Position numbers and translations under genes: made by a program
Source: a virus
Length of the DNA stretch: 59,445 bases
Virus record (IMG/VR): IMGVR_UViG_3300023435_000002
Coordinates: 1 to 59,445 of that record
Strand: one strand, 5' to 3'
Notes under the pieces: model-generated
Told to the model about the DNA's origin: nothing
Databases searched by the model: none
What the model saw: only the letters and a program-made list of their open reading frames with translations
In this document: positions 6,660-59,445 of the stretch, in pieces
Layout: each line of letters starts with the position of its first letter
Numbering within the stretch: position 1 is the stretch's first letter

Positions 6660-6788
6660 ATGATAAAAAATATAAAAAAAGAAACGGTAGAAGAAATAAG
6701 AGCTTTTTTAAAGTTTATTTCTGAAACATATGTCTTTGACCAAATGGCTATAACAGTGGCAAATAGATTAAGGAGAGAAATAAAATGA
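6660..6788 (+). CDS. Small ORF, 42 aa, first gene of the que operon
   Basis: Internal ATG of track ORF 6564..6788. The upstream part of that ORF runs through the structured element E1. ATGA overlap with queD. Confidence 0.4.
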   Translation: MIKNIKKETVEEIRAFLKFISETYVFDQMAITVANRLRREIK

Positions 6789-12477: not shown

Positions 12478-13612
12478 AATTCCTGAATTGAATAGTAGAT
12501 ACATTCCTGTTCATGGTGGTTATGGTCATGTAGAAAAACATATGAATTGGTGGAGTGCTGATTCTCCTTATTTATATGAATTTGGATTATTTAATTTATT
12601 ACACTTTAAAAAAGAACAGATGAATATTATTAGAGGTCAATCTCCTAATATGTTTATTTTAACTGATAGTGGAGGTTTCCAGGTTGTTTCAGGTACTTGT
12701 AATTTGAATTGGGAAACTTCAATTTTACAACAAATTAGATTAAAAGCATCAAAAATATTTTCGTTAGATAAACCAACAGTACACCAAAAGGCATCAGAGG
12801 GTTCATTAACAAATTTTGTTTACATGAATGATACGGAGGCATTTGCAACTATTAAAGATAATTTTGATGTTGCTTTAAAACAATCAAAATATTTAAAAGA
12901 AAAATACCCTGAGGAATTTAAAAAATTTTGTTATATTATGCAAGGTAAATCAATTAATCAAATTGACTATAATATGAACCTATTTAAAGAGGAATTAGGT
13001 GGTGTTGATAAGTATTTGGAATATTTTCCTGGTGGAATAGTATATGCCTCAAAGGGTGGTGATAACTTATTTATTTCTATGGCAGCAAGACATGCCTATG
13101 ATAATTTTGTTTCTAAAGGAATTTATGTACATTTTTTAGGTATGGGTTCATTTTATAGAATGATTATTTTAATTAGAAATATGATTTCAACTTTTGATAG
13201 TTCAACATTATTACAAGGTGTACGAGTAAATGAATTTATTAATCCTTTAAATTTAAATAACACATTACAATTATCATCAGAAAATTTATCTGGTTTTACG
13301 AAGGAGTTTTGTGTATGTCCTGTTTGTAGTGTAACAGATTATCATGATTTAATGAAAAATGATAAACAAGAAATTGGAAGAAAATGTACAATGCACAACC
13401 TATGGCATTTATTAAAAATGAATATATTTTTGGATTCAATTCCTAAGGACAATTACACAACTATTATAATTAAAAATTTTAAAATAAGTGATGATGTTAA
13501 ACGTTCTTTAGAATTTTTAGATTGTTGCGACCAATATGGGTTTAACATTGCCTATAATAAGTATAAACACTATCTTAAAAAAGATATAACTAAACAAACA
13601 AGTTTATTTTAA
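12467..13612 (+). CDS. dpdA: DpdA-like DNA 7-deazaguanine transglycosylase (TGT superfamily)
   Basis: LTDSGGFQV catalytic motif and CVCPVCS...TMHNLWH zinc site. At 381 aa it has no PUA or C-terminal ArcTGT domains. Confidence 0.8.
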   Translation: MQIKIPELNSRYIPVHGGYGHVEKHMNWWSADSPYLYEFGLFNLLHFKKEQMNIIRGQSPNMFILTDSGGFQVVSGTCNLNWETSILQQIRLKASKIFSLDKPTVHQKASEGSLTNFVYMNDTEAFATIKDNFDVALKQSKYLKEKYPEEFKKFCYIMQGKSINQIDYNMNLFKEELGGVDKYLEYFPGGIVYASKGGDNLFISMAARHAYDNFVSKGIYVHFLGMGSFYRMIILIRNMISTFDSSTLLQGVRVNEFINPLNLNNTLQLSSENLSGFTKEFCVCPVCSVTDYHDLMKNDKQEIGRKCTMHNLWHLLKMNIFLDSIPKDNYTTIIIKNFKISDDVKRSLEFLDCCDQYGFNIAYNKYKHYLKKDITKQTSLF

Positions 13613-13613
13613 A

Positions 13614-15512
13614 ATGATAACTAACAAAATACCTAAAAATACTCTAATTTATGATATAGAATGTGCTACTTATGGTTATGATGTTAGTGATACTAAAAAT
13701 CATAAAATGAAATTCTTTGGTGCTTATAGTTATAAAACAAAACAATATTATGTTTATCAAAATTTATCTGATATACAAAAAATAATAAATCAACATAAAT
13801 TTATTGTTGGGTTTAATACAAAAAATTATGATAATCCAATTATAGAACAATCTGGAATAGATATTACATATAAAATAAAAATAGATTTATATAAGATAAT
13901 TCAACAACGAATGAGTTCAATAAAATTTAAAGATTCAGTTTTGGCATATCATTTACCAAGTTTAAGTTTAGATGTTATTACGCAAGTCTTAGGTTTGACA
14001 GATGATAGTAGTAAGAAATTAGATTTTGATTATACTCTTTTAAATAAAGAAGAATTTATGGATGAAGAAATTACTTTAATTGAAACCTATACTAAACGAG
14101 ATATTGAAATCACTAAGAAGTTGTGGGAATATGTGGTGAACACATTTGATAGTTGGAAACATCATTTACATCCCGATGATGCTAAAAAATTAAAACATTT
14201 AAGTTGTGCTCCTAGTGTTTATGCTTATAAAGTAATATGTGATAAAGTTGGTCTTGAAGAAATTTATGATGACGATGCAGAATATACTTCAAGTTTGCGA
14301 GAAGGTGGTTATGTTGCTTATCCAGCTTGTGAAAAACTAGAAGGTAATATCTATTGCTTAGATTTTGCATCGTTGTATCCACATATAATGATTCAATGTA
14401 ATTTGTATGGTAGAAATAAACAAGTGGATTATGGTTGGCACGGTAATGATAAATTTAAAATAAATGGATATTATGAAAATAAAGATATAAATAAAATTAG
14501 TTGGGCCCTACTTCAAATTTATAAAGAAAGAAAGGAACTAAAAAAGAAAAAGGATAAAAAAGAATATGGACTGAAAATTGTAATGAATACTATTTATGGT
14601 CTACTTAGGAATCCAGTTTTTAAAAGTGTATTTGATGATGTAGCAGGAAATGATTGTTGTTTGTTAGCACAACAATGGATTAAACTAGCAATGCAAAAAT
14701 ATAAAGATGAAGGATATAATGTTTTTTATGGAGATACTGATAGTGTTTATTTGGAGGATGTTTTTAATGATGAAGAAAAAATGTTAAGACATAAGGAAGA
14801 AGTTATTGCAGACATAAAAAATAACATTCCTTTTCCACAAGATACTTTTGATATGGATATAGATTATAAAATAGATTTTATTCATTTTTTTAAAGGTGGA
14901 CATAAAAAAGAAGATTCAGAAGTTGAAGGAGATGATATAAAAAATAAGGAATTAGGTCTTATGAAAAAGAATTATATTTTTGTATATGATGATAAAGGAG
15001 AGAAAAAAGTATTTATTAAAAATTTAGGTATTGTTAAAAGAAGTAATTCTAAATTAAGTAAGAAAATATTTTGGGAAAAAATGACACCATATATTTTAAA
15101 GTCACATGTTGCAAAGTTCCCAGACCAACAAATAAAAGAATGGATACATGAGGAATTAAATAAGGATATATATCAATTATCTAAAAGAGTATCTGTTAAA
15201 AAGTTAAGTTCATATAAAAGTAAAAATTGTATGAATGCACAAGCACACGAATATATTCCAAAGGGTGAAACTTCAAAACTTGGTCCAGGATTTCATTTTT
15301 TAATTCCAAATAAAAAATTTGGTATTGGAAAAAGTATGGCGAAATATTGTACAATTCAAGAATATAAAAAATATCTTACATATAATGATTTAAATTTGAA
15401 TCCTATTTTGAAAGAATTGAAATATTTTAATTCAGAGTTTGAATTGGAAATATTAAGAAAGAAAAAATATATCCCGATTGAAAAAAGAATGGAACAAAAA
15501 GGATTATGGTAA
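13614..15512 (+). CDS. polB: Family B DNA polymerase
   Basis: Exonuclease motifs YDIECAT, FNTKNYDNPII and YTKRDIEIT. Polymerase motifs LDFASLYPHIM, KIVMNTIYG and YGDTDSVY. Confidence 0.93.
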   Translation: MITNKIPKNTLIYDIECATYGYDVSDTKNHKMKFFGAYSYKTKQYYVYQNLSDIQKIINQHKFIVGFNTKNYDNPIIEQSGIDITYKIKIDLYKIIQQRMSSIKFKDSVLAYHLPSLSLDVITQVLGLTDDSSKKLDFDYTLLNKEEFMDEEITLIETYTKRDIEITKKLWEYVVNTFDSWKHHLHPDDAKKLKHLSCAPSVYAYKVICDKVGLEEIYDDDAEYTSSLREGGYVAYPACEKLEGNIYCLDFASLYPHIMIQCNLYGRNKQVDYGWHGNDKFKINGYYENKDINKISWALLQIYKERKELKKKKDKKEYGLKIVMNTIYGLLRNPVFKSVFDDVAGNDCCLLAQQWIKLAMQKYKDEGYNVFYGDTDSVYLEDVFNDEEKMLRHKEEVIADIKNNIPFPQDTFDMDIDYKIDFIHFFKGGHKKEDSEVEGDDIKNKELGLMKKNYIFVYDDKGEKKVFIKNLGIVKRSNSKLSKKIFWEKMTPYILKSHVAKFPDQQIKEWIHEELNKDIYQLSKRVSVKKLSSYKSKNCMNAQAHEYIPKGETSKLGPGFHFLIPNKKFGIGKSMAKYCTIQEYKKYLTYNDLNLNPILKELKYFNSEFELEILRKKKYIPIEKRMEQKGLW

Positions 15513-16896: not shown

Positions 16897-16982
16897 GCCC
16901 CAGTAGTTTAATGGTAGAACTCGGAAGGAGGTCGCTTCGGTGGACATGGAAGGAGACACAGGTTCGAATCCTGTCTGGGGCA
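16897..16982 (+). tRNA. tRNA-like gene (86 nt) with an aberrant central region; anticodon not assignable
   Basis: Canonical acceptor stem (GCCCCAG/CTGGGGC), D arm (GTTT-AATGGTA-GAAC) and T arm (ACAGG-TTCGAAT-CCTGT). The 37 nt between them contain a duplicated GGAAGGAG and no canonical anticodon arm. Confidence 0.45.
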
Positions 16983-17795: not shown

Positions 17796-18037
17796 GAAAA
17801 AAAGGGTCAGTAAATTATCAATATAAAATAAGACAAGTTGCTCAAAATCAACAAGGTACTCTTATACATGCTATTACAATCCCAAATTTTATTGCAGAAA
17901 AATTTAAAAATACAAAATTTATTTTAAAATTAGAAAATAATTGTATGATATTTAGTTCTGGATGTGATATAAAAGTTATGTCTAAAGATGATTCCTTTTT
18001 TGATAAATATACAAAAGAAAAGGAGATTGTACAATGA
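17792..18037 (+). CDS. Hypothetical protein, possibly AbrB-like
   Basis: GTLIHAITIPNFIAEKF weakly resembles a SpoVT/AbrB hairpin. ATGA overlaps. Confidence 0.5.
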   Translation: MRKKGSVNYQYKIRQVAQNQQGTLIHAITIPNFIAEKFKNTKFILKLENNCMIFSSGCDIKVMSKDDSFFDKYTKEKEIVQ

Positions 18038-19281
18038 CAAAAAATATAACTTGGCTTTCCGATAGTGCATTCTTACCAACTGGGTATGCCACTATGACTC
18101 TACATATTTTAAATGGATTATCAGAATTAAAAAATGAAGATGGAACTCCAAAATATAATTGTCATCAATTAGCTCATAATTATGTAGGACAAACTCAAAT
18201 TCCAGGAACTACTTTTGAAGATGGAACTAAAACTAACTTTACAATTCATGGAAATGGATTAAGACCATATTGTCAAGATATTATTACCCATAAATTACAA
18301 GAATTAGATACAGATGTATTTGTTACGTTATTAGATACTTTCATGGTGGCACCATTCTATCCACAACATGATTTTGGTAAAGCAAAAACAGTGTTCTATT
18401 ATCCAAGTGATGGTGGTTCAGGGTTACCTTTTGGATGTGAAACTACATTACAAAAAATGGATAAATCTATTTCAATGAGTAGATATGGAAAAGAACAAGT
18501 GGAAAGTATGCATAAAATTTCAAGTGGATTTATTCCACATGGTATTAATATAGATATGTTTCATCCATTAGAACCAGAACAAAAAATTGAAATTAAAAGA
18601 ATAATGGGAATTAAAGATAAGTTTGTTATTGGAACAGTCGCAAGAAATCAAGGTAGAAAAATGTTAGATAGAACAATTAAAGCCTTTGCATTATTTGCAG
18701 AGGGTAGAGATGATGTAGTTTTAGTTATGCATTGTGACCCTCAAGACCCAGCGGCAGTATCTTCTTTACCACAATTGATTGAAAGATATGGAGTACAGAA
18801 TAAAGTAATTTTTACTGGTATGAGATATTTTAAAGGATTTACATATGACCAAATGAATGACGTGTTTAATTGTATGAATATGTTTATACTCACCACTTCT
18901 GGAGAAGGTTTTGGAATGCCTATATTAGAAGCCATGGCATGTGGAGTTCCAGCTTTAGTAACTAACTATACAACCACTCAAGAGTTAGTTTTGGATAATG
19001 ATGCCGGATTGGGAATAAATTTAGTAGGAACAGAAGAAGACGAAAATCCAAAGGTCCATGAAAATGAAATAGTTAATGGAACAATAACTGGTGGATTTGC
19101 TGTTGAAAGAGGAATTTGTTGTTTAAAGGATGCAGCACTAAAAATGAAATTCTTTTATGATAATAGAGAAGAAGGAATACGAATGGGAAAAAATGGTAGA
19201 AAAGCAGTATTAAAACAATATGATTGGAAATTAATTATAAATCAGTGGGATGAAGTTATGGAGGAACTAACTAGATTATGA
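18034..19281 (+). CDS. Glycosyltransferase, GT-B (family 4-like)
   Basis: FVIGTVARNQGRK... and TTSGEGFGMPILEAMACGVPALVTNYTTTQELV (EX7E region). Confidence 0.8.
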   Translation: MTKNITWLSDSAFLPTGYATMTLHILNGLSELKNEDGTPKYNCHQLAHNYVGQTQIPGTTFEDGTKTNFTIHGNGLRPYCQDIITHKLQELDTDVFVTLLDTFMVAPFYPQHDFGKAKTVFYYPSDGGSGLPFGCETTLQKMDKSISMSRYGKEQVESMHKISSGFIPHGINIDMFHPLEPEQKIEIKRIMGIKDKFVIGTVARNQGRKMLDRTIKAFALFAEGRDDVVLVMHCDPQDPAAVSSLPQLIERYGVQNKVIFTGMRYFKGFTYDQMNDVFNCMNMFILTTSGEGFGMPILEAMACGVPALVTNYTTTQELVLDNDAGLGINLVGTEEDENPKVHENEIVNGTITGGFAVERGICCLKDAALKMKFFYDNREEGIRMGKNGRKAVLKQYDWKLIINQWDEVMEELTRL

Positions 19282-20465
19282 GTCAGGTAGATTTAGTTAA
19301 CTTAAATGAAAGAGGAATACTTGACCATGCGGGTGATAGAGTTCCAACAGGATTATTAAGTATAGCTAGTTCAATGAGAGCTAAAGGACATCCCACAGAT
19401 ATATATGATTTAAATAAATTTTCTGAGGAGGCTTTTGTTGAACATGTTAATTATAGTGAACCTGATGCAGTGGGAATATCAGTTTACACAAGTCCAATGT
19501 TAGAGAGAGCCAAAGAGTTAGCCGGAAGATTAAAAGGAAAAACTAGATTAGTAGCAGGTGGATATCATGCAACAGCAATGCCGGAAAGCCTATTACCATA
19601 TTTTGATGCAGTAGTAGTTGGAGAAGGAGAGAATGCACTTGAAAGAGCATTAAGAGAAGATGGAGTAATTCCAAGAGATACTCCAGACTTAAATGAAACT
19701 CCTAATATAAACTTAAATGAATTAGGGGAATATACAATTGATGGAAGACAAGGAACAATGATAACAAGTAGAGGATGTCCTTATTCGTGTTCATTCTGTG
19801 GTAATTTTTCAAGTAAAGTAAGAGATGAACCACTTTGGAAAATGCAAGAACAAATAAGACAATTAGAAAAAAATGGAGTAGAGTCAGTTTATTTTTTAGA
19901 TGACATGTTTACCTTACGAGAAGATAGAATGGATGAAATAGGAATGATGGCACAGAATGCTGGGTTGGCATTTAGAGCTACAACTAGAGCAGACTCTCTA
20001 AATGATAGTAAGTTAGATAAATTAAAATCAAGAGGATGTGAAGTATTAAGTTTGGGAGTAGAGAGTGGGAATGAAGAAATACTAAAGAGAATTAATAAAA
20101 GGGAAACACCAGAACAAATATATGAAGCAGTAAGAAAGGCTGGAGAGAGAGGAATAGATACTAAAGGTTTCTTTATAATGGGACTTCCAGGAGAGACAGA
20201 AGATACAGCTAGGGATACAATGAACTTTTCAAGAAAACTTAAAAAAGCAGGAATGAAGCAAGCAGACTTTTACTATCTTTGTCCCTTCCCTGGAACTCCA
20301 ATATGGAATTACCCAGAGAAATTCGGAATAACTATAAAAGATAGAGATTTTACTAAATATTTACAAGCCGGTCAAAGTGCAAGATGTGTAATAGATACTG
20401 AAGAATTAAGTGCACAAAGAATCGAGGAACTAACAGAGGAGGCTAGAAGACAATGGAAAAATTAA
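19278..20465 (+). CDS. B12-binding-domain radical SAM enzyme
   Basis: N-terminal Rossmann-like LLSIASSMRAKGH...AVGISVYTS...LVAGGYHAT, then ITSRGCPYSCSFCGN (CX3CX2C). Confidence 0.8.
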   Translation: MSQVDLVNLNERGILDHAGDRVPTGLLSIASSMRAKGHPTDIYDLNKFSEEAFVEHVNYSEPDAVGISVYTSPMLERAKELAGRLKGKTRLVAGGYHATAMPESLLPYFDAVVVGEGENALERALREDGVIPRDTPDLNETPNINLNELGEYTIDGRQGTMITSRGCPYSCSFCGNFSSKVRDEPLWKMQEQIRQLEKNGVESVYFLDDMFTLREDRMDEIGMMAQNAGLAFRATTRADSLNDSKLDKLKSRGCEVLSLGVESGNEEILKRINKRETPEQIYEAVRKAGERGIDTKGFFIMGLPGETEDTARDTMNFSRKLKKAGMKQADFYYLCPFPGTPIWNYPEKFGITIKDRDFTKYLQAGQSARCVIDTEELSAQRIEELTEEARRQWKN

Positions 20466-21697
20466 TAGTAATGATTATGGGACAGAATTGTGAAAAATTT
20501 ATTAAGATGTGTTTAGATAGTACTGAAGATGCAGATGCAAGAATATATTGTGATGGTGGTAGTACGGATTCAACTCTTGATATAGTAGAGAATAGAATAG
20601 GAAAGAAGTCAATAATAAGCAATAAGTATGACCAAGAGGATAAAAAGATGAATGGAAAGCAAAGGAACTTTTATTTAAAATATTTGAAAGAAAACTATCC
20701 AGACCATTGGGCACTTTGTTTAGATGCTGACGAAGTAGTAGAAGACTTGAGTAAGATTAAAGAGTTTATTAACGACCCATTAGGAGAAGGTTTGTTTTCT
20801 GTAAAGATGAGACATTTGATTCAGGATTTAGCGCATGAGGATGCAACTGCTGAAACTCATTATGTTCTAAACAGATTGTTTAAAATAAATAAAGCCGATA
20901 AATATCCAGAAGTTGAACATCCAGTGTTACAAGGTGAAGTAGTGGGAGGAACAGCTTGTACGACAATCTGGCATCTTGCGTACATTCCAAACTTATGGGA
21001 CATCAAGAAACGTTATGATAGCCACATGAAAAAGTCACAAATGCACACACCAGAGTATTTAGCAAGTTGGTACAAAGCACATTTGTTTGGTCAATATCCA
21101 ACTAAACAATTCAACCCTGTGGAGTTACCAAAAGTAATATTAGATGAATTTGGGCTTGATAAGGATGAACTTTATTTTATGAATAGAGGATTGGAGACTA
21201 AACATTTTATAATGGCTAAGCAATGGCACAACTTTTTTGATGATGATGATAAAATGTTTGAAGTATTAGAATTTGGTTGTGGTAGAGCACCGTACGGATA
21301 TGCATTTGATATGATTGATGAAGAATGTTATATGGGAATAGAATTAAGTAAATATGCAGTAGACAATTCATTACTTCGTCACGATGTTTTGCAAGGTAAT
21401 GTAATTGATTGTTACCTTGAAACAGAAGTTAAATTAGTGATAGCATTTGATTTATTAGAACATCTAAAATATAAAGACTTAGATAAAGCTATTAACAATA
21501 TAATAAACCATTCAAGTAAATACATTCTAATAAGTGTTCCAGTACTAGGAGACCCAAACCTAGAAGCAGACCCAACACATATAATCAAAGAAACTAAAGA
21601 ATGGTGGATTAAACAATTCACAGACAAAGATTTAAAATTAATTAAAACACCAGAACATTTTCTGTTTAAGGAGCAGATTATGATATTTGAAAAATGA
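20453..21697 (+). CDS. Fusion of a GT-A (family 2-like) glycosyltransferase and a class I SAM methyltransferase
   Basis: N-terminal part: IMGQNCEKFIKMCLDS...YCDGGSTDSTLDIV...LDADE. C-terminal part: VLEFGCGRAPYG...AFDLLEHL. Confidence 0.65.
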   Translation: MEKLIVMIMGQNCEKFIKMCLDSTEDADARIYCDGGSTDSTLDIVENRIGKKSIISNKYDQEDKKMNGKQRNFYLKYLKENYPDHWALCLDADEVVEDLSKIKEFINDPLGEGLFSVKMRHLIQDLAHEDATAETHYVLNRLFKINKADKYPEVEHPVLQGEVVGGTACTTIWHLAYIPNLWDIKKRYDSHMKKSQMHTPEYLASWYKAHLFGQYPTKQFNPVELPKVILDEFGLDKDELYFMNRGLETKHFIMAKQWHNFFDDDDKMFEVLEFGCGRAPYGYAFDMIDEECYMGIELSKYAVDNSLLRHDVLQGNVIDCYLETEVKLVIAFDLLEHLKYKDLDKAINNIINHSSKYILISVPVLGDPNLEADPTHIIKETKEWWIKQFTDKDLKLIKTPEHFLFKEQIMIFEK

Positions 21698-21846
21698 AAC
21701 TACAAGAATACTTAAAAAAATCACTAGAAGAAATATCTAAACAATGTATAACCACTGCAGAAATAGAATTAATATTAGACGATAAATTAAACGTAACTGA
21801 AAAAGGCCATCAAAGAATTTCTTTAACATTATACACAATAAAATGA
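21694..21846 (+). CDS. Small ORF, 50 aa, hypothetical
   Basis: ATGA junctions on both sides fill the 146-nt gap in the track. Confidence 0.4.
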   Translation: MKLQEYLKKSLEEISKQCITTAEIELILDDKLNVTEKGHQRISLTLYTIK

Positions 21847-22358
21847 ACTACACACATAGAGATTTAGCAATGGAAGAAGTTGAAAAGTTTAGAGAAGAGA
21901 ACTTCCCACAAAGAGTTTTGGAAATAGGCGCAGGGCATAATTCTTTTGAATATATTTTTAATGCTAATAGATATACTTGTATTGATAATCAATCTCAATA
22001 CAAAGGGAAATCAATAAAGATGGATGTTCATAATATGACATTTGAAGATGATGAATTTGATTGTGTATTTATGTGTCACGTTGCAGAACATTTTATTAAT
22101 CTAGCACAAGCATTTTCAGAAATAAAAAGAGTACTAAAAGATGGTGGAAAAGTATTTAGTATTACACCTAATAATTGTGAACATCAGATTTTAAAAGGTG
22201 ACGGAGACCATATATTTGTATTAGGACCAATGCAATGGATTAGATTATTAGCTAATTTAGGATTTAAAAATATTAAAAGTTATAAACAAATGACATGGAA
22301 AGAAGGACAGATTCTAAAGGAACAAGATTATAATATAATAACGGTGGCTGAAAAATGA
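21843..22358 (+). CDS. Class I SAM-dependent methyltransferase
   Basis: VLEIGAGHNS, FDCVFMCHVAEHF, LKDGGKVF. Confidence 0.75.
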   Translation: MNYTHRDLAMEEVEKFREENFPQRVLEIGAGHNSFEYIFNANRYTCIDNQSQYKGKSIKMDVHNMTFEDDEFDCVFMCHVAEHFINLAQAFSEIKRVLKDGGKVFSITPNNCEHQILKGDGDHIFVLGPMQWIRLLANLGFKNIKSYKQMTWKEGQILKEQDYNIITVAEK

Positions 22359-23212
22359 AAAGAATAGATGGACTAATTGATGTAATGATTTGTACAAGAG
22401 ATAGGCCCACAGAACTTGCACTATTACTTCAAAGTTTAAGAACTCAAACATATCAGAAGTTTGATTTGTATATAGTGGATGATTGTAGTGGTACACCACT
22501 GAATAACTTCCATTTTTTAGGTTGTATGATTAATAGATTAAAATTAGAAGGTCATAAAGTAAAGGTAGTTAGAAATGATTTTACATTAGGAGTAAGTAAG
22601 AATAGACAAAAGGCAGTTGATTTAGTTATGAAAGAAGGTTATGGAGAATTATGTGCTAGGTTGGATGATGATGTTATTGTGGAACCTGATTATTTTGAGA
22701 AGTTGCTAATAGTTTTAGATAAAGGATATGATTTTGCTTCTGGAATCACCTCCCCTTTTATGAATGAAAATCCAAAAAGAAAAACAGAATTTGTTAAACC
22801 TATAATCAACGAAGTCGTATTAGGGGAGGCTGGTGATATCATTAAGAATGGTGATGATTGTGGATATGAATACCTAGATACAGCAATCATACCCACTCAC
22901 CACTTTAGAAGTTGTGGAATATATAAAAAGACTATTCATGATGCAGGAGTAGATTATTTTAATCATTTTGGTAAACATGGATATAGAGAAGAACAAATTC
23001 TTAGTTTTAGAATGATACTTGCCGGATTTAAGATTGGTGTTCACACTACAGCAAATGCTAGGCATCTATTAACACCAAGTGGTGGAGAGAGATTTGCTAC
23101 TCAAAATGAAATGGTTCAAGAGAATGAAAAAGAATTACATAGATGGACAAAAGAACAATTTGAAAAGAATGGAGATTTTATTAGTAAATATACTGAGGAG
23201 GTTTTGAAATGA
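22355..23212 (+). CDS. Glycosyltransferase, GT-A (family 2)
   Basis: DVMICTRDRPTELALLLQSLRTQTYQKFDLYIVDDCS and RLDDD. Confidence 0.8.
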   Translation: MKRIDGLIDVMICTRDRPTELALLLQSLRTQTYQKFDLYIVDDCSGTPLNNFHFLGCMINRLKLEGHKVKVVRNDFTLGVSKNRQKAVDLVMKEGYGELCARLDDDVIVEPDYFEKLLIVLDKGYDFASGITSPFMNENPKRKTEFVKPIINEVVLGEAGDIIKNGDDCGYEYLDTAIIPTHHFRSCGIYKKTIHDAGVDYFNHFGKHGYREEQILSFRMILAGFKIGVHTTANARHLLTPSGGERFATQNEMVQENEKELHRWTKEQFEKNGDFISKYTEEVLK

Positions 23213-23508
23213 AAATAATTAATATTCCAAGACAATCTGGAAAAACAACTACTATAATAAAAGAAATGTTAAACACTAAAAATGACGTAATGGTTGTATT
23301 TTCTCAAATGTCAAAAGAACTTATAGTAAAAGATAATCCTACTTTAAAAAATAGAGTATTGACAATAGATGAATGTAGAGAAATTAATAGACTTAGAGGA
23401 TTTAGAAAAATACACATTGATAATTTAAATGAATGTTTAGGTATATTTGGAGAAGTAGGAATAGTCACAATGACTAACTATCCAGTAAAAGGAGAATTTG
23501 AAATATGA
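23209..23508 (+). CDS. Small P-loop NTPase
   Basis: PRQSGKTTTI Walker A motif. 99 aa. Confidence 0.5.
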   Translation: MKIINIPRQSGKTTTIIKEMLNTKNDVMVVFSQMSKELIVKDNPTLKNRVLTIDECREINRLRGFRKIHIDNLNECLGIFGEVGIVTMTNYPVKGEFEI

Positions 23509-23741
23509 AATTGCAATTAGAACTTTGGAAAGTAAATGGGATAGATGGAGGGACTAGGATTCGTTATAATAGAAGTGCTGAGTGGGAGCATATGAGTGAA
23601 GAATTGATGATTGGAGGATTTGCCCAAGGATTAACTACATTACCAGAATTGTGTAAATATGAACCCGAAAATGCTCCGCCATATATTGATGTATTAGTCA
23701 ATTTTATAATAGAAGGTAAAGTGGCGGTGTTGATACAATGA
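23505..23741 (+). CDS. Hypothetical protein
   Basis: ORF track. ATGA overlaps. Confidence 0.55.
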   Translation: MKLQLELWKVNGIDGGTRIRYNRSAEWEHMSEELMIGGFAQGLTTLPELCKYEPENAPPYIDVLVNFIIEGKVAVLIQ

Positions 23742-24874
23742 AAGTAAATTTGTATGGTTCAATCTGGGGCTGCTCAGGATATGCAAATCATACTAAACAT
23801 TTAGTTAATGCATTATGTGATATTGGTGTAGACGTTTCTCTACAATCACAAGTTCCTCAAGGATGGGAAAGGGTTGTTAATGATAATGAATTAAAGATGA
23901 TTACTAAACCAATTCACATGGATGGAATAGATTTAATGATTGACCTACCTACAAATTGGAAAATGGTATCTAGTGAGAGACAACCATTTATTGGATTCTT
24001 AGTTTGGGAGGGAGATAAAATTCCTGAGTATTGGATTGATTATTTATTAGATGATGCAGTTACACAGATTTGGGTTCCTAGTCAGCATACAAAGAAGGCT
24101 ATTGAGAATACTATAGCTAATATGAAAAATGACGAATTTCCAATATTATCTACAAACGAAATTAATATACTAAATAAAATAAAAATAGTACCTCACGGAG
24201 TAGATAAAGAAATATTCAAACCGGAAGAACCTAAAAAAGAGAAAGAAGTATTCACATTCATAGCTACTAAAGGCTGGAGGCACAACTTAGATAGAGGAGG
24301 TTTACAATATCTAATAAAAGCATACTCAGAAGAATTTACATCTAAGGATAAAGTGGAGATGTTGATTAAACTAAATACTGCTTATGGTATTCCAGATATT
24401 CAACAATTACTAACAGAATTAGATATTAAAAACGTGGATAAACCCAAGTTGTCATTTATTACTCAAGAGATGACTCTTAAAGACCTTAATAATTTTTATA
24501 ATTATGGGGATGTATTTGTTTCTACAACAATGGCAGAAGCATTTAATCTCGGAGGAATAGAAGCAATGGCTTGTGGTAAACCTACTCTACAAACTAACTT
24601 CGGTGGACAAACGGATTATATGACAAGGGATAATAGTTTTAAAATAAATAAAGGTGAAATGATTCCAGTTACTTGGGAAACAATGTATGAGGAAGTTTGT
24701 TGGTTTAAACCGGATATAGATGATATTAAGAAACAACTAAGATATTGTTTTGAGAATAAAGATATAGTAAAAGCAAAAGGAAAGAATGCAAAACTAACTA
24801 CTGATAAATGGACATGGATAGAGAGTGCGAAGAAAGCAAAAGTATGTTTAGAGGAGATTAATAATGACAAATAA
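23738..24874 (+). CDS. Glycosyltransferase, GT-B (family 4-like)
   Basis: VFVSTTMAEAFNLGGIEAMACGKPTLQTNFGGQTDYM. Confidence 0.75.
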   Translation: MKVNLYGSIWGCSGYANHTKHLVNALCDIGVDVSLQSQVPQGWERVVNDNELKMITKPIHMDGIDLMIDLPTNWKMVSSERQPFIGFLVWEGDKIPEYWIDYLLDDAVTQIWVPSQHTKKAIENTIANMKNDEFPILSTNEINILNKIKIVPHGVDKEIFKPEEPKKEKEVFTFIATKGWRHNLDRGGLQYLIKAYSEEFTSKDKVEMLIKLNTAYGIPDIQQLLTELDIKNVDKPKLSFITQEMTLKDLNNFYNYGDVFVSTTMAEAFNLGGIEAMACGKPTLQTNFGGQTDYMTRDNSFKINKGEMIPVTWETMYEEVCWFKPDIDDIKKQLRYCFENKDIVKAKGKNAKLTTDKWTWIESAKKAKVCLEEINNDK

Positions 24875-50924: not shown

Positions 50925-51521
50925 CTATCTTCCTATTGTATACCCTCTGGCAGTAGGCATTTCCCTTCTACTAAAGAATAAAGCAGATAATGCAAGGGCA
51001 CAAACCAAGTCATCATGCTCTCTTGAATCATGAAATATCCTTTTCTTTTGAACATTTTCTATTCTTGAACTCCTTTGTCCTGTAAATTCAAATTTGATTG
51101 ATAATAATTGTTTTATAAGCTTCCTATCTAAATCAGAATAAATTAATTTCTTCTCTTGCATAAGAAGTCTTAAATTTTCAAACATTTCTGTTTTACTTTC
51201 TTGTGTAAACTTAATTGGCTCTACTATATTACCTAATTCTTCAACTAACATATCACCAACACCCTCACCCAGTCCGGTAACGTCAGGATATATCTTATCA
51301 AAGTTAAATTTAGAGTGTAGATATAAAGCAAACTGAGTTAGTTCAATAGTATTACACTTATCAATGGTATGAGTATAAACAACTTTTATTTGCCCGTCTC
51401 CTGTCATCTTCTTTTGGAGTATTACAAATCCGGCTTCATCATTTCCACTCGTGGCGGGGTCAATTCCAAGAGTATAAATTGCTTTTGGAATTTTATCTGG
51501 ATGGTAATTAAATTGTATCAT
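50925..51521 (-). CDS. terL: Terminase large subunit, nuclease (RNase H-like) domain, as a separate ORF
   Basis: LGIDPATSGNDEAGFVIL, ...HDDLVCALALS. Confidence 0.7.
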   Translation of the reverse strand: MIQFNYHPDKIPKAIYTLGIDPATSGNDEAGFVILQKKMTGDGQIKVVYTHTIDKCNTIELTQFALYLHSKFNFDKIYPDVTGLGEGVGDMLVEELGNIVEPIKFTQESKTEMFENLRLLMQEKKLIYSDLDRKLIKQLLSIKFEFTGQRSSRIENVQKKRIFHDSREHDDLVCALALSALFFSRREMPTARGYTIGR

Positions 51522-52288
51522 ATTATAAGGTACTGATAGCCCTCCTGTGATTGCTTAACTAAACTATATTCAAAGAAAGCATTCTCATCCTCAACAAACT
51601 CGGCTTCATACTCCTGTCTAAATTCTATATCTAACAAATCACGTTTCTGTTCTTTAATAAACTCTTTACTATATTGTCCAACCTCAACAACCTCTCTCCA
51701 ATCCACCTTAACTAATACATACTCGGATTCTTTATCATAACAACTCCTATAAAAATGATTCTTCCCTAATGGTGTACCTATTTTAATTACTTGACCATTT
51801 GGCTTTGATGCAATCATTGGAATAACTACTTGACTAACAACCTTATCCCCAATAACACCAGCTTCCTCTAATACTACAATGTCGGCTGTATATCCTCTCA
51901 TACTTCTACCCTCATTACCTTCCGGTAAACTTAATATTCTACTACCAGTTGCAAGTTTAAGTTCTCTAGCAGTATCCTTTATTATAAGGTCATGTAATAA
52001 TGGATTACCAACAACAAACTCTCTTATCTTCTCATATAATTCATCAGACTGATTCTGTGTTGGTGATGCAATAACAATAGTTATACATTCTGTAATTGCT
52101 CTAAAAGTTAAATATGCAGATAGGTTAAATGACTTACCGCTCTGTCTACACCATAATCCTGTAACTCGTTTATTAGTCATACAAGCATTAAGAAATTTCT
52201 CTTGATAAGGATAAGGAGTAAAATTAAACCAACATTGACAAAAGTCTACAATCTCACTCTTCCTTTTTAAGTTCGATTTGTTTGTCAT
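51518..52288 (-). CDS. terL: Terminase large subunit, ATPase domain, as a separate ORF
   Basis: YPYQEKF, WCRQSGKS (Walker A), ADIVVLEEAG (Walker B). It ends at the usual inter-domain position with an ATGA overlap. Confidence 0.75.
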   Translation of the reverse strand: MTNKSNLKRKSEIVDFCQCWFNFTPYPYQEKFLNACMTNKRVTGLWCRQSGKSFNLSAYLTFRAITECITIVIASPTQNQSDELYEKIREFVVGNPLLHDLIIKDTARELKLATGSRILSLPEGNEGRSMRGYTADIVVLEEAGVIGDKVVSQVVIPMIASKPNGQVIKIGTPLGKNHFYRSCYDKESEYVLVKVDWREVVEVGQYSKEFIKEQKRDLLDIEFRQEYEAEFVEDENAFFEYSLVKQSQEGYQYLII

Positions 52289-52820: not shown

Positions 52821-53109
52821 GATGTTTTTCCTCTTCGGCCATTAATTCTAAATTAGCTTTTCTTTTTCTTGTAAACTCTTTTGATTCTTCTCTTAATTTC
52901 TCGGCTTGTGCTTGTTGTTTATCTACATATGCAGAAATTAATCTAGTAATAAAATCATCTGGAATTATTCTTCCTTCAACTACACAAAATCTATTCTTAT
53001 ATATGGCTATTTCATTTGAGAAACCACTAAATCTATCTTCGTTAGCTAATACTATTGGTAATGCATATGATAATTTTACTCTGTAGTCGTCTCTTTCTCT
53101 TTCATTCAT
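52810..53109 (-). CDS. Hypothetical protein
   Basis: ORF track. Confidence 0.55.
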   Translation of the reverse strand: MNERERDDYRVKLSYALPIVLANEDRFSGFSNEIAIYKNRFCVVEGRIIPDDFITRLISAYVDKQQAQAEKLREESKEFTRKRKANLELMAEEEKHHGK

Positions 53110-53112
53110 TTA

Positions 53113-53183
53113 TGGACCAAACGAGAATCGAACTCGTGGCTCTTCCGTGCAAGGGAAGTATATTCCCACTATACTATTGGCCC
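53113..53183 (-). tRNA. tRNA-Ala(UGC)
   Basis: GGGCCAA-TA-GTAT-AGTGGGA-ATAT-A-CTTCC-CTTGCAC-GGAAG-AGCC-ACGAG-TTCGATT-CTCGT-TTGGTCC-A. Carries the G3:U70 identity pair. Confidence 0.85.
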
Positions 53184-53226
53184 TCACCATTCCTTTAAGC
53201 CGAATGGTTCTGCGTAAAATAAAAAG

Positions 53227-53688
53227 TTATTCTTTCTTAACGGGTTTAGCTTCTTCTTTTTTATTCATCTCTTCGATTGGAACGAATATACTAAATCCAT
53301 GACCTCTCTTCTTACATTTATAATTTCTATAAACACCAACCTTTACACTTTGTCGCATATTGTCGATTAGTTTATCTTCTACAACTGGTGTTTCATCTAT
53401 AAAGTCAAATATATCATCTTCTCCATATTTATCTAAGTTTATTTTATTAAATATACTTACCTTTGAATCTGGATTAAATCTCATCTCGTCCGATACTCTA
53501 TCTAACTCTAATTCAAAATCATTTCTTGCACAAGCTGCATCATACGGCTTGAATAGTTTTTGAAATTGTTGTTGTTTCTTTGAAACTTCTTTTAAGAACA
53601 TATTCAGAGTTCCAGGTGTACCTATCTCTACAAAATCCTTCTTCTCATCAGCTGTTGCTTTTCTTATTATTCCTATTTGGTCTGCCAT
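53227..53688 (-). CDS. Hypothetical protein
   Basis: ORF track. GGAGGT precedes the ATG. Confidence 0.6.
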   Translation of the reverse strand: MADQIGIIRKATADEKKDFVEIGTPGTLNMFLKEVSKKQQQFQKLFKPYDAACARNDFELELDRVSDEMRFNPDSKVSIFNKINLDKYGEDDIFDFIDETPVVEDKLIDNMRQSVKVGVYRNYKCKKRGHGFSIFVPIEEMNKKEEAKPVKKE

Positions 53689-53728
53689 TTTTGTTTTACC
53701 TCCTATAATTTAATTCCTCTTTATATTT

Positions 53729-54013
53729 CTACTCAGCGTCTTCATCTACTACCTCTTTAACTTCTACGCCATTCTCTATCTGCTTATTCAATTCAACTAT
53801 TGTATTCTTGTTTAATTCAATAGCATTTACTGCTTCTGTCTTTTGTGCTTCAAACTCTTTCCTCTGCCTATCAAAGTTTACTTGTAAACCTTCATCTAAC
53901 ATTAAGTCACAATATTTAATCATATACATTGCTCCTTTTGTTTCAAAGTCCATTCTAGCTATTTGCTTCTCCATGAAGCTCTTTTCTTCTTTTGTTAGTT
54001 CTCTTGTTGTCAT
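53729..54013 (-). CDS. Coiled-coil hypothetical protein
   Basis: ORF track. AGGAGG precedes the ATG. Confidence 0.55.
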   Translation of the reverse strand: MTTRELTKEEKSFMEKQIARMDFETKGAMYMIKYCDLMLDEGLQVNFDRQRKEFEAQKTEAVNAIELNKNTIVELNKQIENGVEVKEVVDEDAE

Positions 54014-54056
54014 TATTTTATCCTCCTATTATTTAATTTATTAATATACAAGAGGA

Positions 54057-54317
54057 TTATTCCTCTTGTTCTCGTTCTGCCTTAACCTCTGGATTTCTAC
54101 AGTCATCTGTTTGATTCTGTCTTAGTCCACCGGCTAACTTACCTTTTTTACTTCCGTCTTTTTGTCCGTGTTCTTTTTTCATCTCTTTTACCTCCTTTGA
54201 ATCTTTACTAAATACCTTTCTATCTTTCCACTCTTCTTGCTTTCCTTCATTCCATGTGTTTACTGGTCTTAAATAACCACACACTCTGGAATATACTTCA
54301 CATTTTGTTTTTACCAT
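54057..54317 (-). CDS. Stand-alone NrdD C-terminal glycyl-radical-domain-like protein (86 aa)
   Basis: Start taken at MVKTKCEVYSRVCGYLRPVNTWNEGKQEEWKDRKVF (ATGGTAA overlap with the upstream stop). This matches the RVCGYLG...FNAGKQEEVKRR C-terminus of class III ribonucleotide reductases as I recall it. Confidence 0.6.
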   Translation of the reverse strand: MVKTKCEVYSRVCGYLRPVNTWNEGKQEEWKDRKVFSKDSKEVKEMKKEHGQKDGSKKGKLAGGLRQNQTDDCRNPEVKAEREQEE

Positions 54318-54523
54318 CTTGATTCTATTAGTGAAATGATTGCAGCAACTATTATCACTACTATAATCACCGCTATAATTATAGCCCACGGTATTAGTAT
54401 AGGACTCAATACCCACCACCAAGACCAGTCAATAACACTTGTTATTTTAAATGCTATAAATAAAAGAGTAAGAAATCCGAAGAATCCTATACCACCATTA
54501 TAATTTATTTTACTTTCACTCAT
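54311..54523 (-). CDS. Small membrane protein
   Basis: ORF track. Two hydrophobic helices. Confidence 0.55.
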   Translation of the reverse strand: MSESKINYNGGIGFFGFLTLLFIAFKITSVIDWSWWWVLSPILIPWAIIIAVIIVVIIVAAIISLIESRW

Positions 54524-54690
54524 TGTTTTACCTCCATTTTATTTATTTGATTGATTGTTCCGTCTAATGCCACTTGTAACCATTTACTCAAATTAAACCA
54601 TTCTCGGTTTCTCCTTATCCATGTTATCTGGTCCGGTCGTAAGCTTACACTCATTCCTTCTCTTTTTTGACAAACTCTATTTCTTGTCAT
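54520..54690 (-). CDS. Ribbon-helix-helix-like DNA-binding protein (56 aa)
   Basis: MSVSLRPDQITWIRRNREWFNLSKWLQVALD fits the RHH strand-helix-helix pattern. ATGA junction downstream. Confidence 0.45.
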   Translation of the reverse strand: MTRNRVCQKREGMSVSLRPDQITWIRRNREWFNLSKWLQVALDGTINQINKMEVKQ

Positions 54691-54811
54691 CCTCTACCTC
54701 CAGTTTATCAATACACTTCACACATAATCCCATATCTATACCAAAATAGGCATAATCATTACCACATTCACATATACCTCGTTTAAATCCTTTAGGAATA
54801 TCTCTAGTCAT
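54677..54811 (-). CDS. Small zinc-finger ORF (44 aa)
   Basis: Start taken at MTRDIPKGF (ATGACTAG overlap with the upstream stop). CECG...CVKC. Confidence 0.4.
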   Translation of the reverse strand: MTRDIPKGFKRGICECGNDYAYFGIDMGLCVKCIDKLEVEDDKK

Positions 54812-55478
54812 AATCCACCAACCTACTTTTATCCATACTCCTACTTTTAGCTCCACATATCTCACACCATGAATCTCCACAAGAACATTCTTTTGGTGGC
54901 TCTATATTATTAACTATCTTCTCTTTTAACTCTTTGAAGTCTTTAATCTTAGATTCAACAAATACAACATCTAACTCGTAATTAAATTGTTTAAGGTTAC
55001 AATTGTCTTTATTCATATATAAAATCATTCCTCGCGGTATCCCAAGATAATACATATAAAATTGTAATTGGGATTGATATTCAGCACTAGCATCCTTCAA
55101 AGAATTAAATACCCATTGACTACAACTCTTTATCTCTAGTACGTAGAGGTTTCCTTCTTTCGGGTCTGCATCCGGACATTTAATTATACAATCTGCTCTT
55201 CCATGAAACAACTCATTCTCTACAGCTGTTATCTCTGAGGATATGAGGATTCCCATTTCAACTAAATATTTGTTAAGCAACTCGTGAACAGAATTACCTA
55301 AATCCAGAACTCTCTTAACTCTCGGAGTGAATTTCTTTGCCTTTGGATTCTTAATATTATTATAGATTATCCAAGGTGCTTTACCTAATTCAGAAACATG
55401 AAAGTAATCTCGCTCTTTACTTACCCACTCTTTCTTTTCAAGGTGTTCATCAATTTGTTTTATTATATCAAACTCCAT
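54804..55478 (-). CDS. PD-(D/E)xK nuclease, Cas4/RecB-like
   Basis: GRADCII, YVLEIKS, QLQFYMYY, and a C-terminal Cys cluster CSCGDSWCEIC. Confidence 0.6.
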   Translation of the reverse strand: MEFDIIKQIDEHLEKKEWVSKERDYFHVSELGKAPWIIYNNIKNPKAKKFTPRVKRVLDLGNSVHELLNKYLVEMGILISSEITAVENELFHGRADCIIKCPDADPKEGNLYVLEIKSCSQWVFNSLKDASAEYQSQLQFYMYYLGIPRGMILYMNKDNCNLKQFNYELDVVFVESKIKDFKELKEKIVNNIEPPKECSCGDSWCEICGAKSRSMDKSRLVDYD

Positions 55479-55502
55479 TATATTAATAATTAATAATGTT
55501 TA

Positions 55503-55539
55503 GAGTTTATAAAGGTAGTAAAATAAATAATATTATTTA
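55503..55539 (-). promoter_or_regulatory. Conserved intergenic element R5 (first minus-strand promoter candidate)
   Basis: gagtttataaaggtagtaaaataaataatattattta. The TTTATAAA box lies 27 nt upstream of the ATG at 55478. Confidence 0.5.
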
Positions 55540-55894
55540 TCAATTGTAAGCCCTTCTAAGCGCTTTTTAGCGAGTGGACTGATGTTTGTATCAGTCACTA
55601 TTCATCTGTTGTTATTGTAGTGTATTAATAAAAAATCAAAAAAAAAATAAAAAAAATAAATACATATTCTTATAGTTTTTTCTACCATAAAATATTCCAT
55701 TTTTCCTCTTAAAAAATTCTGTCATTAATTTTAAATGAAAAAAACCATATCTATTTTTTATTTTTAAAAAATCGTTTCCTCCAAAAAAATTTTTACCCCA
55801 AGCAAAATTCACGAATCTAAAAATAGGTTTTTAAAAACCATAGATTTAATGGTCTTACGGGTTAATAAGGTTAATTCCCTATTTTTAAATCGTT

Positions 55895-55917
55895 AAAAAT
55901 AGACTAAAAATAGATAT
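55895..55917. repeat. Left arm of a perfect 23-bp inverted repeat
   Basis: aaaaatagactaaaaatagatat is the reverse complement of 56000..56022. Confidence 0.9.
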
Positions 55918-55999
55918 GGTAAAAACCACACATTCCTGTCATAATATATAATTTCATTTAATAATATATAATAATATATAATAATTGCTTATTTTTTCA

Positions 56000-56022
56000 A
56001 TATCTATTTTTAGTCTATTTTT
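56000..56022. repeat. Right arm of a perfect 23-bp inverted repeat
   Basis: atatctatttttagtctattttt. An 82-bp AT-rich spacer separates the arms. Confidence 0.9.
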
Positions 56023-56120
56023 ATAAAATAAAAAATAGATATTGTCTGTTTCATTAAATCATAATGACAACTCACACCATAATTCACACCAATAAACCTA
56101 TATACTACAACACCTATAAG

Positions 56121-56128
56121 TATATAAA
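56121..56128 (+). promoter_or_regulatory. TATA-box candidate (TATATAAA) for the rightward early genes
   Basis: 21 nt upstream of the ATG at 56150. Confidence 0.4.
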
Positions 56129-56149
56129 GAAGCTAATATAATTTTATAT

Positions 56150-56314
56150 ATGAAAAACAAAAAAGATGATATTAACCAAACACAAAGTTTAATTAAATGT
56201 CCAAATTGCGATGAACAAATGAATCTAAGCGATACTTGTGATAATTGTAATTACAAAGATTTAAGTTCACAAAATGGCGTGAAACAGGGAAATGACGCCG
56301 AGGTGAAAGAATGA
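56150..56314 (+). CDS. Small zinc-ribbon ORF, 54 aa
   Basis: CPNC...CDNC. Ends at the junction GAGGTGAAAGAATGA. Confidence 0.45.
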   Translation: MKNKKDDINQTQSLIKCPNCDEQMNLSDTCDNCNYKDLSSQNGVKQGNDAEVKE

Positions 56315-59241: not shown

Positions 59242-59445
59242 TAAAATACAACATAAAAAGATTTCTATCGGGTGGGATGCAAATAAAAAGAATAATGATT
59301 ATTTAGACTTAAATGACGTCAAAGAATTTATTAAGGAATTGAAAGATAGAATAAACTCTCCTATAAATGCAGAATCATTAAGAGGTTATAATGTTCAAAG
59401 ATTATGGTTTTTTAAAGAATTAGACAAACTAGCAGGGGAGAAATT
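59228..59445 (+). CDS. MTLSDKI...ELAGEKLI family, member 3 (5' part; continues at nt 100 via the circular junction)
   Basis: MTLSDKIQHKK...[47 protein letters not shown]. The frame is kept across 59445 to 100. Confidence 0.6.
   Translation, partial: MTLSDKIQHKKISIGWDANKKNNDYLDLNDVKEFIKELKDRINSPINAESLRGYNVQRLWFFKELDKLAGEK
59347..59445. repeat. Direct terminal repeat, copy 2 (identical to 1..99)
   Basis: Exact 99-nt identity, read directly. Confidence 0.95.

Follow-up and report, generated by a model that had tools for sequence, protein, structure and literature searches.

Formate lyases make up the sole class of glycyl radical enzymes for which spare-part proteins are known (June 2026 review, PMC13450708). 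Trans-complementation by GrcA (YfiD) of Escherichia coli is established for pyruvate formate-lyase, and Y06I of phage T4 is a phage-encoded example of the same kind of spare part. Here we analyze an open reading frame (ORF) located on the minus strand, at positions 54057-54317, of a viral DNA of 59,445 nucleotides (IMG/VR record IMGVR_UViG_3300023435_000002; "the window" is this whole stretch). Like GrcA and Y06I, its product is a small stand-alone glycyl-radical domain (GRD) that is encoded apart from a barrel and that would, by analogy, rely on the activase of the barrel enzyme. The parent enzyme of GrcA is pyruvate formate-lyase, whereas that of the window protein is NrdD, the anaerobic (class III) ribonucleotide reductase (RNR). 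The window-type unit, to which we refer as mini-GRD, is also far shorter than GrcA, with about 35 residues predicted to form a hairpin and one helix, and its relatives in cells, unlike GrcA, occur both as obligate subunits within split enzymes and as extra copies. We tentatively favor, at slightly less than an even chance, the interpretation that the ORF encodes a working trans-acting radical subunit, a sort of "radical cartridge" that the host activase NrdG would activate and that, once docked into the NrdD barrel of the host, would sustain the supply of deoxyribonucleoside triphosphates (dNTPs). To judge from sequence relationships, its most likely source is a lineage in which NrdD is naturally split into a GRD-less barrel of ca. 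680 residues and a GRD subunit of ca. 40-60 residues.

Three other described systems are relevant to this locus. Full-length NrdD proteins (those of phage T4, Thermotoga maritima, 4COI/4U3E, and Prevotella copri, 8P23) share with the window protein the GRD motif and its C-terminal position, but the ATP cone, the 10-stranded barrel that holds the thiyl-radical cysteine loop, and the Zn ribbon are all missing from the window protein, which cannot reduce nucleotides alone. A precedent for a divided RNR is the class II enzyme NrdJa/NrdJb of Pseudomonas aeruginosa and Thermus phage phiYS40, encoded by two consecutive ORFs with a short intergenic gap; that division separates the barrel from a C-terminal redox/Zn-finger region, while the class III division described below separates off the radical-bearing domain. 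Finally, the archaeal tailed virus ANMV-1 (locus L174; KP703175.1, 25525-25959) encodes a stand-alone NrdD C-terminal domain of 144 amino acids (AJP62049.1) that is 66% identical to the window protein over the core and that carries, unlike it, a Zn ribbon ahead of the GRD. The ANMV-1 gene was published as nrdD ("anaerobic ribonucleoside triphosphate reductase"), but its product comprises only the Zn ribbon and the GRD, and the deposited record (38.5 kb) contains neither a barrel nor NrdG. No report of a class III enzyme split between barrel and GRD, or of an NrdD-type spare part, was found in open-access papers and bioRxiv, in agreement with an earlier note on this DNA, made from the sequence alone, whose author was not aware of any described NrdD-specific spare-part protein.

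An NrdD-type glycyl-radical domain encoded on its own

The ORF pointed out in the earlier note proved real, with the sequence quoted there, an ATG start and a TAA stop at 54057-54059, and its complete product is MVKTKCEVYSRVCGYLRPVNTWNEGKQEEWKDRKVFSKDSKEVKEMKKEHGQKDGSKKGKLAGGLRQNQTDDCRNPEVKAEREQEE. A longer version of 121 amino acids with a TTG start, proposed by the ORF finder, was dropped, since the orthologue in contig L014 lacks the extension and independent gene calls give 86 amino acids; the identical 86-residue product has been called independently on contigs from many samples, those with this virus including the ERZ273157xx-ERZ273161xx series, SRR7528855 and IMG 3300022871. The protein matches the Pfam family NRDD (PF13597) with E=3.1e-10 and 39.8 bits (gathering cut-off, 26.2), its residues 4-36 aligning with profile positions 531-562 of 562, that is, with the last 32 positions only. 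Likewise, TIGR02487 (NrdD) is matched at positions 549-579 of 581 with E=7.9e-10, for a score of 37.9 against a whole-protein cut-off of 326, and the NrdD-like PHROG 487 aligns with the protein at its own C-terminal end. A profile of the mini-GRD family matches the C terminus of T. maritima NrdD (4COI, residues 604-645 of 651); NrdD was reached in the PDB by this family-profile search only, the search with the single 86-residue sequence giving nothing relevant. The identification as a stand-alone peptide resembling the C terminus of NrdD, already made in the earlier note, is therefore upheld by the alignment that the note had called for.

The same alignment check found no similarity to GrcA. 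The Pfam Gly_radical (PF01228) and NCBIfam GrcA models did not match the protein at E values up to 10, no GrcA chain appeared in the PDB searches with either the window protein or the family profile, and a BLASTP comparison with E. coli GrcA gave E=0.64 over an irrelevant segment. Thus, the analogy with GrcA that had been drawn would be one of function only, the GRD being stand-alone and separate from a barrel, with no detectable relationship in sequence.

Two parts can be distinguished in the protein. The GRD core, residues 4-36 (TKCEVYSRVCGYLRPVNTWNEGKQEEWKDRKVF; 54210-54308), is defined by the Pfam match and by the alignment to cellular small subunits, the shortest of which (38 amino acids) is in its entirety as long as this core and corresponds to viral residues 1-37. 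Invariant or nearly invariant positions of the core are C6, E7, V8, Y9, S10, R11, G14, Y15, R17, P18, K26, E29 and R33. Gly14 (codon GGT, 54276-54278), in the motif RVCGY (SRVCGY), is the predicted radical glycine, and a glycine is retained at this position in 147/147 newly fetched representatives of the family. The wording of the NrdD C terminus that the earlier note had given for comparison does not apply to the window, which instead reads RVCGYLRPV...WNEGKQEEWKDRKVF. An AlphaFold2 model built on the family alignment predicts a beta-hairpin for residues 7-18 (54264-54299); its strands span residues 7-10 and 15-18, its turn holds Gly14, and a helix comes next, at residues 19-31. The second part, residues 37-86 (NQTDDCRNPEVK; 54060-54209), is a Lys/Glu-rich tail of 50 residues with one Cys; it matches no family and is specific to the virus lineage. 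The orthologue (L014 in the viral contigs, P0002 in the representative library) is 69% identical and keeps both core and tail. Against the L014 orthologue, the ratio of nonsynonymous to synonymous substitution rates (dN/dS) is ca. 0.28 for the core and ca. 0.54 for the tail; by this measure, the core is under purifying selection.

With regard to the features that define NrdD, the C-terminal glycyl-radical loop RVxGY and the conserved helix are present. The ORF does not encode the 10-stranded alpha/beta barrel, of about 550-700 amino acids and with the catalytic cysteine finger loop, there is no Zn ribbon (CxxC/H ... CxxC) directly upstream of the GRD, C6 being the only Cys counted upstream of the glycine, and NrdG is not encoded alongside. 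In sequence terms the 86-residue protein is, in consequence, a fragment-level member of the NrdD Pfam domain that fails all the other defining features of NrdD.

The window carries an exact direct terminal repeat of 99 bp (1-99 = 59347-59445) and is therefore a complete genome of ca. 59.3 kb, circularly assembled or terminally redundant, so that the absence of a partner gene holds genome-wide. When full-length viral NrdD was compared with the whole window by tblastn, only the mini-GRD ORF was matched, and hidden Markov models (HMMs) of the barrel (from 56 NrdD sequences) and of the activase (from 31 NrdG proteins) retrieved from the window nothing but the mini-GRD ORF and a weak match of the NrdG model (26 bits) to QueE. 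The earlier statement that the window encodes neither an RNR barrel nor an activase is thus confirmed. Two candidates for hidden partners were rejected. The intein-containing radical S-adenosylmethionine (SAM) protein of 470 amino acids at 7204-8616 is not NrdG but QueE (TIGR03963, 2e-52, vs NrdG2, 4.9e-09), located in a QueD/FolE/TGT cluster; and the ORF of 716 amino acids at 2196-4346 has a PrimPol-like N terminus, no Pfam or PHROG match, and an hhalign probability of 0.2% against the barrel alignment.

The presence of two radical-SAM proteins in the genome, QueE and a B12-binding one (19278-20465), bears on the idea that the GRD serves an enzyme other than RNR, or that a radical-SAM enzyme other than NrdG (QueE or the B12-binding protein of the virus, or a defense enzyme of the host) takes it as a substrate or is decoyed by it. 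QueE is indeed the protein of the genome nearest to NrdG, but its substrate is a small molecule and it belongs to a complete deazaguanine cluster, neither of the two radical-SAM families recurs beside viral mini-GRDs in the clustering of neighbors, and the sequence affinity of the peptide is entirely to NrdD and not to other glycyl radical enzymes, which makes a different partner highly unlikely.

It could also be the case that the ORF is a non-functional remnant of a viral nrdD gene that has decayed, its 3' end having stayed open by chance, and fragmented nrdD genes do exist in some phages (Dwivedi et al. 2013, PMC3653736). This is hardly credible here: the complete genome contains no further nrdD fragment, the ORF has its own ATG and appears coupled to the upstream gene, the product is identical across contigs from many samples and has the 69%-identical orthologue with the low dN/dS of the core just described, and the intact mini-GRD unit occurs in many unrelated viral contexts.

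Split class III reductases in cells

A scan of cellular genomes, with one genome per GTDB species, showed where else short GRD frames are found. The best 80 cellular loci comprised 29 short frames and 46 full-length NrdD proteins, the remaining 5 being intermediate or cut by a contig end. When the neighbors of all mini-GRD loci were clustered, three recurrent families emerged, namely NrdG (31 loci), an RNR barrel of ca. 680 amino acids (25 loci) and NrdR (13 loci). In 25 genomes a barrel ORF, a mini-GRD and nrdG stand together, often preceded by nrdR. The order (nrdR) - barrel - mini-GRD - nrdG was found in Woese-, Pace- and Micrarchaeota, Nanobdellota, Saccharibacteria, Dojkabacteria and other Patescibacteria, and also in Anaerolineae, Victivallaceae and Hippea, while Halanaerobiales and one metagenome-assembled genome (MAG) of the Bacillota have the order barrel - nrdG - mini-GRD.

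In these operons the barrel ORF stops just past the Zn ribbon (...TPTFSICPxHGYxxGEHxxCPxC...), which thus stays on the barrel, and the cellular mini-GRD begins a few residues ahead of CEVYSRVVGY. The barrel stop codons are mixed (TAA 9, TGA 8, TAG 1), the relative frames of barrel and mini-GRD are spread over all three possibilities (5/6/7), the gaps between them range from -19 to +58 nt, and many mini-GRD start codons are preceded by ribosome-binding sites of the GGAGG type. Because of these four traits, barrel and mini-GRD are to be regarded as separate cistrons, and an artefactual split caused by recoding, selenocysteine, an intron or a frameshift is ruled out. As read from this gene organization, the barrel - mini-GRD - nrdG operons are naturally split class III RNRs. 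In a rough neighbor-joining tree of the barrel columns, without bootstrap, the split forms fall on at least five separate branches. In Victivallaceae the split lies within the second CxxC, so that the last Zn ligand would be on the small subunit, where it could plausibly act as a tether between the subunits.

Some cellular genomes carry more GRDs than barrels. In four genomes of the candidate phyla radiation (CPR), L161, L162, L163 and L170 (Moranbacteria, Parcubacteria and Paceibacterota), the nrd operon contains, after a full-length NrdD whose own GRD is intact, a stand-alone ORF of 81-94 amino acids that encodes a further Zn ribbon and GRD; nrdG comes next in L161, L162 and L170, and two of these extra copies end in CC. 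In a Lentisphaeria chromosome assembled from long reads (CP091727.1; L146, 4941-5520), a unit of 206 bp is repeated 2.7 times with 98% identity downstream of NrdD barrel sequence, which results in three mini-GRD genes in tandem, all of them equipped with an AAGGAG ribosome-binding site of their own. The CPR copies and the tandem array suggest that more GRD than barrel is wanted, and such a surplus would fit the GRD being a consumable part.

As a separate observation, many small subunits of the split type (those of L094, L101, L128, L135, L145, L154 and L158) end in a Cys or a Cys pair (…CKC, …CGC, …CGCKN, …CACESQ, …CDCE), an ending reminiscent of the redox-shuttle cysteines at the C termini of class I and II RNRs; in the tail of the window protein there is a single Cys.

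The viral mini-GRD family and its probable function

Orthologous mini-ORFs in other viruses, for which the earlier note had proposed a search, turned out to be abundant. The homologues of the window protein retrieved by a word search were all short (26/26, 47-112 amino acids), and at least 541 viral contigs of IMG/VR encode a relative of the mini-GRD. The best 80 of these loci were classified by means of stop-to-stop frames and HMMs of the partner genes. Orphan mini-ORFs of ca. 40-170 amino acids accounted for 69 of them and full-length NrdD for 6; two (L047, from a contig of 203 kb, and L058) carry barrel, NrdG and mini-GRD together, two were left unclassified by the motif filter, and one (L027) is probably the end of a full-length NrdD, since its frame is cut by the contig end and NrdG is adjacent. 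An HMM search of 1.84 billion cluster representatives (a library at 50% identity) gave 4971 proteins at E<=1e-3; among the sequences newly fetched from the best 150 of these matches, 146 of 147 were shorter than 200 amino acids. Not all candidates stood: MT835493, from the phage collection, was discarded as a carrier because it has a full-length NrdD and NrdG, and the double-GRD proteins P0155, P0157 and P0160 of the representative library look like assembly repeats. The nearest viral relatives sit in unrelated contexts, beside tail genes, YopX genes or terminases, and, judging from these surroundings, viral mini-GRD genes behave like morons, that is, add-on genes between phage modules. In viral contigs L037 (5971-6477) and L041 (5980-6489), the mini-GRD frame has no stop and reads on into a sequence with a signal of the lipoprotein type (lipobox LSGC), which would represent either a fusion or a lost stop codon.

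Comparison of the viral mini-GRDs with 24 split and 42 full-length cellular sequences rendered a split-type small subunit as the closest cellular sequence for 52 of 69, and a full-length C terminus for 14 of 69; the former figure is, by our arithmetic, about 7-8 standard deviations over expectation. Viral and split-type cellular mini-GRDs have in common a lead-in signature, (R/K)-(T/Q)-(K/R)-C-E-V-Y-S-R, in which R or K at -3 occurs in 67% of the viral and 83% of the split-type sequences and in 28% of full-length C termini, and K or R at -1 in 63%, 83% and 28%, respectively. Some pairs of a viral and a cellular sequence (Bacillota, Dojkabacteria and Lentisphaeria types) show 85-90% identity along 40 residues. 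Among the genomes, the window protein is best matched by the small subunit of the split operon of an uncultured archaeon (L094, with a GRD-less barrel ORF of 686 amino acids), with 74% identity; the two proteins share the start MVKTKCEVYSRV, and the G+C contents are alike (30.4% vs 31.0% for the window). We define here as split-type small subunits those encoded by a cistron of 38-90 amino acids that starts shortly before C-E-V-Y-S-R-V-[VC]-G-Y with the basic lead-in (R/K)-(T/Q)-(K/R). The window protein, which starts with MVKTKCEVYSRVCGY, has these traits, but it is an orphan in a complete genome and does not lie beside a GRD-less barrel ORF and nrdG. In these comparisons, the cellular sequences that come closest to the window protein are small subunits from split class III RNRs and not cut-off ends of full-length NrdD. 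It is for this reason that a viral copy of a detachable radical subunit is the most economical reading of the ORF.

The earlier note had favored another possibility, a spare part of the GrcA type, in which the viral peptide, once activated by host NrdG, would replace the oxygen-cleaved or inactive GRD of a full-length host NrdD. The stand-alone GRDs that accompany full-length NrdD in the four CPR genomes reproduce the logic of pflB plus grcA, the precedent set by GrcA is the one cited above, 14 of the 69 viral mini-GRDs are after all closest to full-length C termini, and one comes from a MAG labelled Oscillospiraceae. Yet the CPR extra copies carry a Zn ribbon, whereas the window protein has none and matches the GRD-only subunits of split enzymes, and it bears no sequence relation to GrcA. 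We regard this possibility as unlikely, although by no means negligible. The earlier proposal was then right in its direction, a spare part for the host NrdD, but the patching of a full-length enzyme is the less direct reading, since the relatives are small subunits of split ones. The mini-GRD is conserved and would be a new form of the known spare-part principle, and its earlier interpretation needs the context of split enzymes.

If the ORF encodes a working radical subunit, its action can be pictured as follows. The peptide would be made from a polycistronic transcript in an anaerobic, probably archaeal, host, whose radical-SAM activase NrdG would take a hydrogen from Gly14. The hairpin would then dock in the host NrdD barrel, where the glycyl radical would generate the catalytic thiyl radical, and the pool of active reductase would thereby be raised or maintained, providing dNTPs for viral DNA synthesis at a cost of ca. 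260 bp. Should the host enzyme be of the split type, as the relationships of the peptide suggest, the host NrdD barrel would be natively GRD-less. We infer that a DNA virus with its own polymerase and no RNR would benefit from a larger amount of active reductase or from a longer life of its active form, the GRD being the part that would be destroyed by oxygen.

The orphan condition of the gene would also be expected of a decoy or inhibitor, a peptide that titrates host NrdG or blocks the barrel and so shuts down or re-times host dNTP synthesis, for takeover of the cell or for superinfection exclusion. Short peptides that mimic the glycine loop are substrates of pyruvate formate-lyase activase, and the lineage-specific tail, absent from cellular subunits, could be taken in the same sense. 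Lowering the dNTP supply would nonetheless be self-defeating for a DNA virus with PolB and PCNA and no RNR; all residues of the catalytic motif, including the glycine, are kept across the family; and homologous mini-GRDs are integral to cellular nrd operons, even as tandem arrays, where an inhibitor makes little sense. A decoy is for these reasons distinctly unlikely.

Several points weigh against the preferred interpretation, that of a working radical subunit derived from split enzymes. The AlphaFold2 model of the isolated peptide has a mean pLDDT (the model's per-residue confidence) of 68.9, and of 74-83 over residues 1-30, so that confidence in it is moderate, and a Foldseek search of the PDB with this model gave only chance Zn-finger-like matches with E>1, which are uninformative. 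The tail is without counterpart in cellular small subunits and might alter the function. The comparison of closest relatives uses only ca. 40 residues and a cellular set picked by similarity to the query. Most viral loci were viewed within +/-6 kb, and the orphan status is established for the window and the deposited ANMV-1 record only. The scans of the collections relied on patterns that include the GY motif and are biased to intact motifs, a bias of which the HMM search of the representative library is free. With regard to an archaeal host, the relatives of the portal protein that have names are from CPR and Bacteroidota MAG bins, although they are only two and only ca. 34% identical.

In a wider sense, and with the same reserve (we would put it close to, but below, an even chance), class III RNRs may be two-piece enzymes in many anaerobes, CPR bacteria and DPANN archaea among them, whose detachable and re-synthesisable cartridge of ca. 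40 residues, and nothing else of the enzyme, would have been captured repeatedly by bacterial and archaeal viruses, as a minimal auxiliary metabolic gene, to reload the host reductase. If so, the spare-part principle would reach beyond pyruvate formate-lyase, to the enzyme on which strict anaerobes depend for all their DNA precursors, and the mini-GRD would be the first exchangeable or spare-part radical subunit outside the formate lyases as well as the smallest known metabolic subunit encoded by a virus. CPR and DPANN organisms, with their reduced genomes, would have a two-subunit architecture of class III RNR that is so far unreported, and a cheap and testable model would be at hand for the way in which anaerobes, and the viruses that infect them, deal with the oxygen lability of glycyl radicals. 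Many short ORFs that bear the label "anaerobic ribonucleoside-triphosphate reductase", and that figure among the auxiliary RNR genes of viruses, are not reductases and are due for re-annotation. A natural substrate of 40 residues would, in addition, be a handy tool for the study of NrdG.

Genome context and further features of the virus

The ATG of the mini-GRD gene overlaps, in the sequence ATGGTAA (54311-54317, minus strand), the TGG-TAA end of the upstream gene, which encodes a membrane protein of 70 amino acids (54311-54523, minus strand; phrog_1374 match), and this suggests that the two are translationally coupled in one transcript. No terminator-like site of the minus strand was found within 53000-56200. 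On account of this overlap and this lack of a terminator, the mini-GRD gene appears to be a cistron within a transcript that would run leftward from the gene of a Cas4-like PD-(D/E)XK nuclease (54804-55478, minus strand) to the packaging genes; a promoter scan gave no signal above shuffled background. Downstream, the homologues of two genes of the window, for proteins of 94 and 153 amino acids, adjoin a mini-GRD in viral contig L089 as well.

The virus is tailed; besides a terminase in two ORFs it encodes a portal fused to MuF, a capsid protein, and the tail tube and tape-measure proteins, and its G+C content is 31.0%; no lysin was recognized among the window proteins. The phage collection contained no nucleotide match to the window, and the protein matches were short, weak and to unrelated phages only. 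On the plus strand are encoded the PrimPol-like protein of 716 amino acids (2196-4346), without a Walker A motif detectable by regular expression, a PCNA-type sliding clamp (9850-10569) and a family-B DNA polymerase (13614-15512). Together with the Cas4-like nuclease, this replication set is of the archaeal-virus type and suggests an archaeal host.

The two ORFs of the large terminase, on the minus strand, overlap by 4 nt and encode, respectively, an ATPase of 256 amino acids (51518-52288; Terminase_6N) and a nuclease of 198 amino acids (50925-51521; Terminase_6C), and the same two-ORF arrangement has been called on independent contigs of the same virus (L006-L009). A cluster of the plus strand encodes QueD (6785-7204), QueE (7-carboxy-7-deazaguanine synthase; 7204-8616), FolE (9188-9853) and a TGT/DpdA-like protein (12467-13612), and suggests that the viral DNA is modified with 7-deazaguanine; within it, QueE is split by an intein, with HINT/intein splicing domains at residues ~34-288 and an HNH-like insert. 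A tRNA-like element at 16897-16982 (plus strand) matches the Rfam tRNA model with 50.7 bits, and its acceptor, D and T arms are perfect, but a purine-rich stretch of 35 nt with a C(UUCG)G hairpin replaces the anticodon arm and the variable loop; ARAGORN rejects the element with or without introns, and neither an anticodon nor a clear archaeal-type intron could be derived from it. Finally, the region 18034-24874 (plus strand) encodes four glycosyltransferases, of GT1/GT4 and GT2 types, together with the B12-binding radical-SAM enzyme, a cluster that may be involved in glycosylation of the DNA or the virion or in modification of the host surface.

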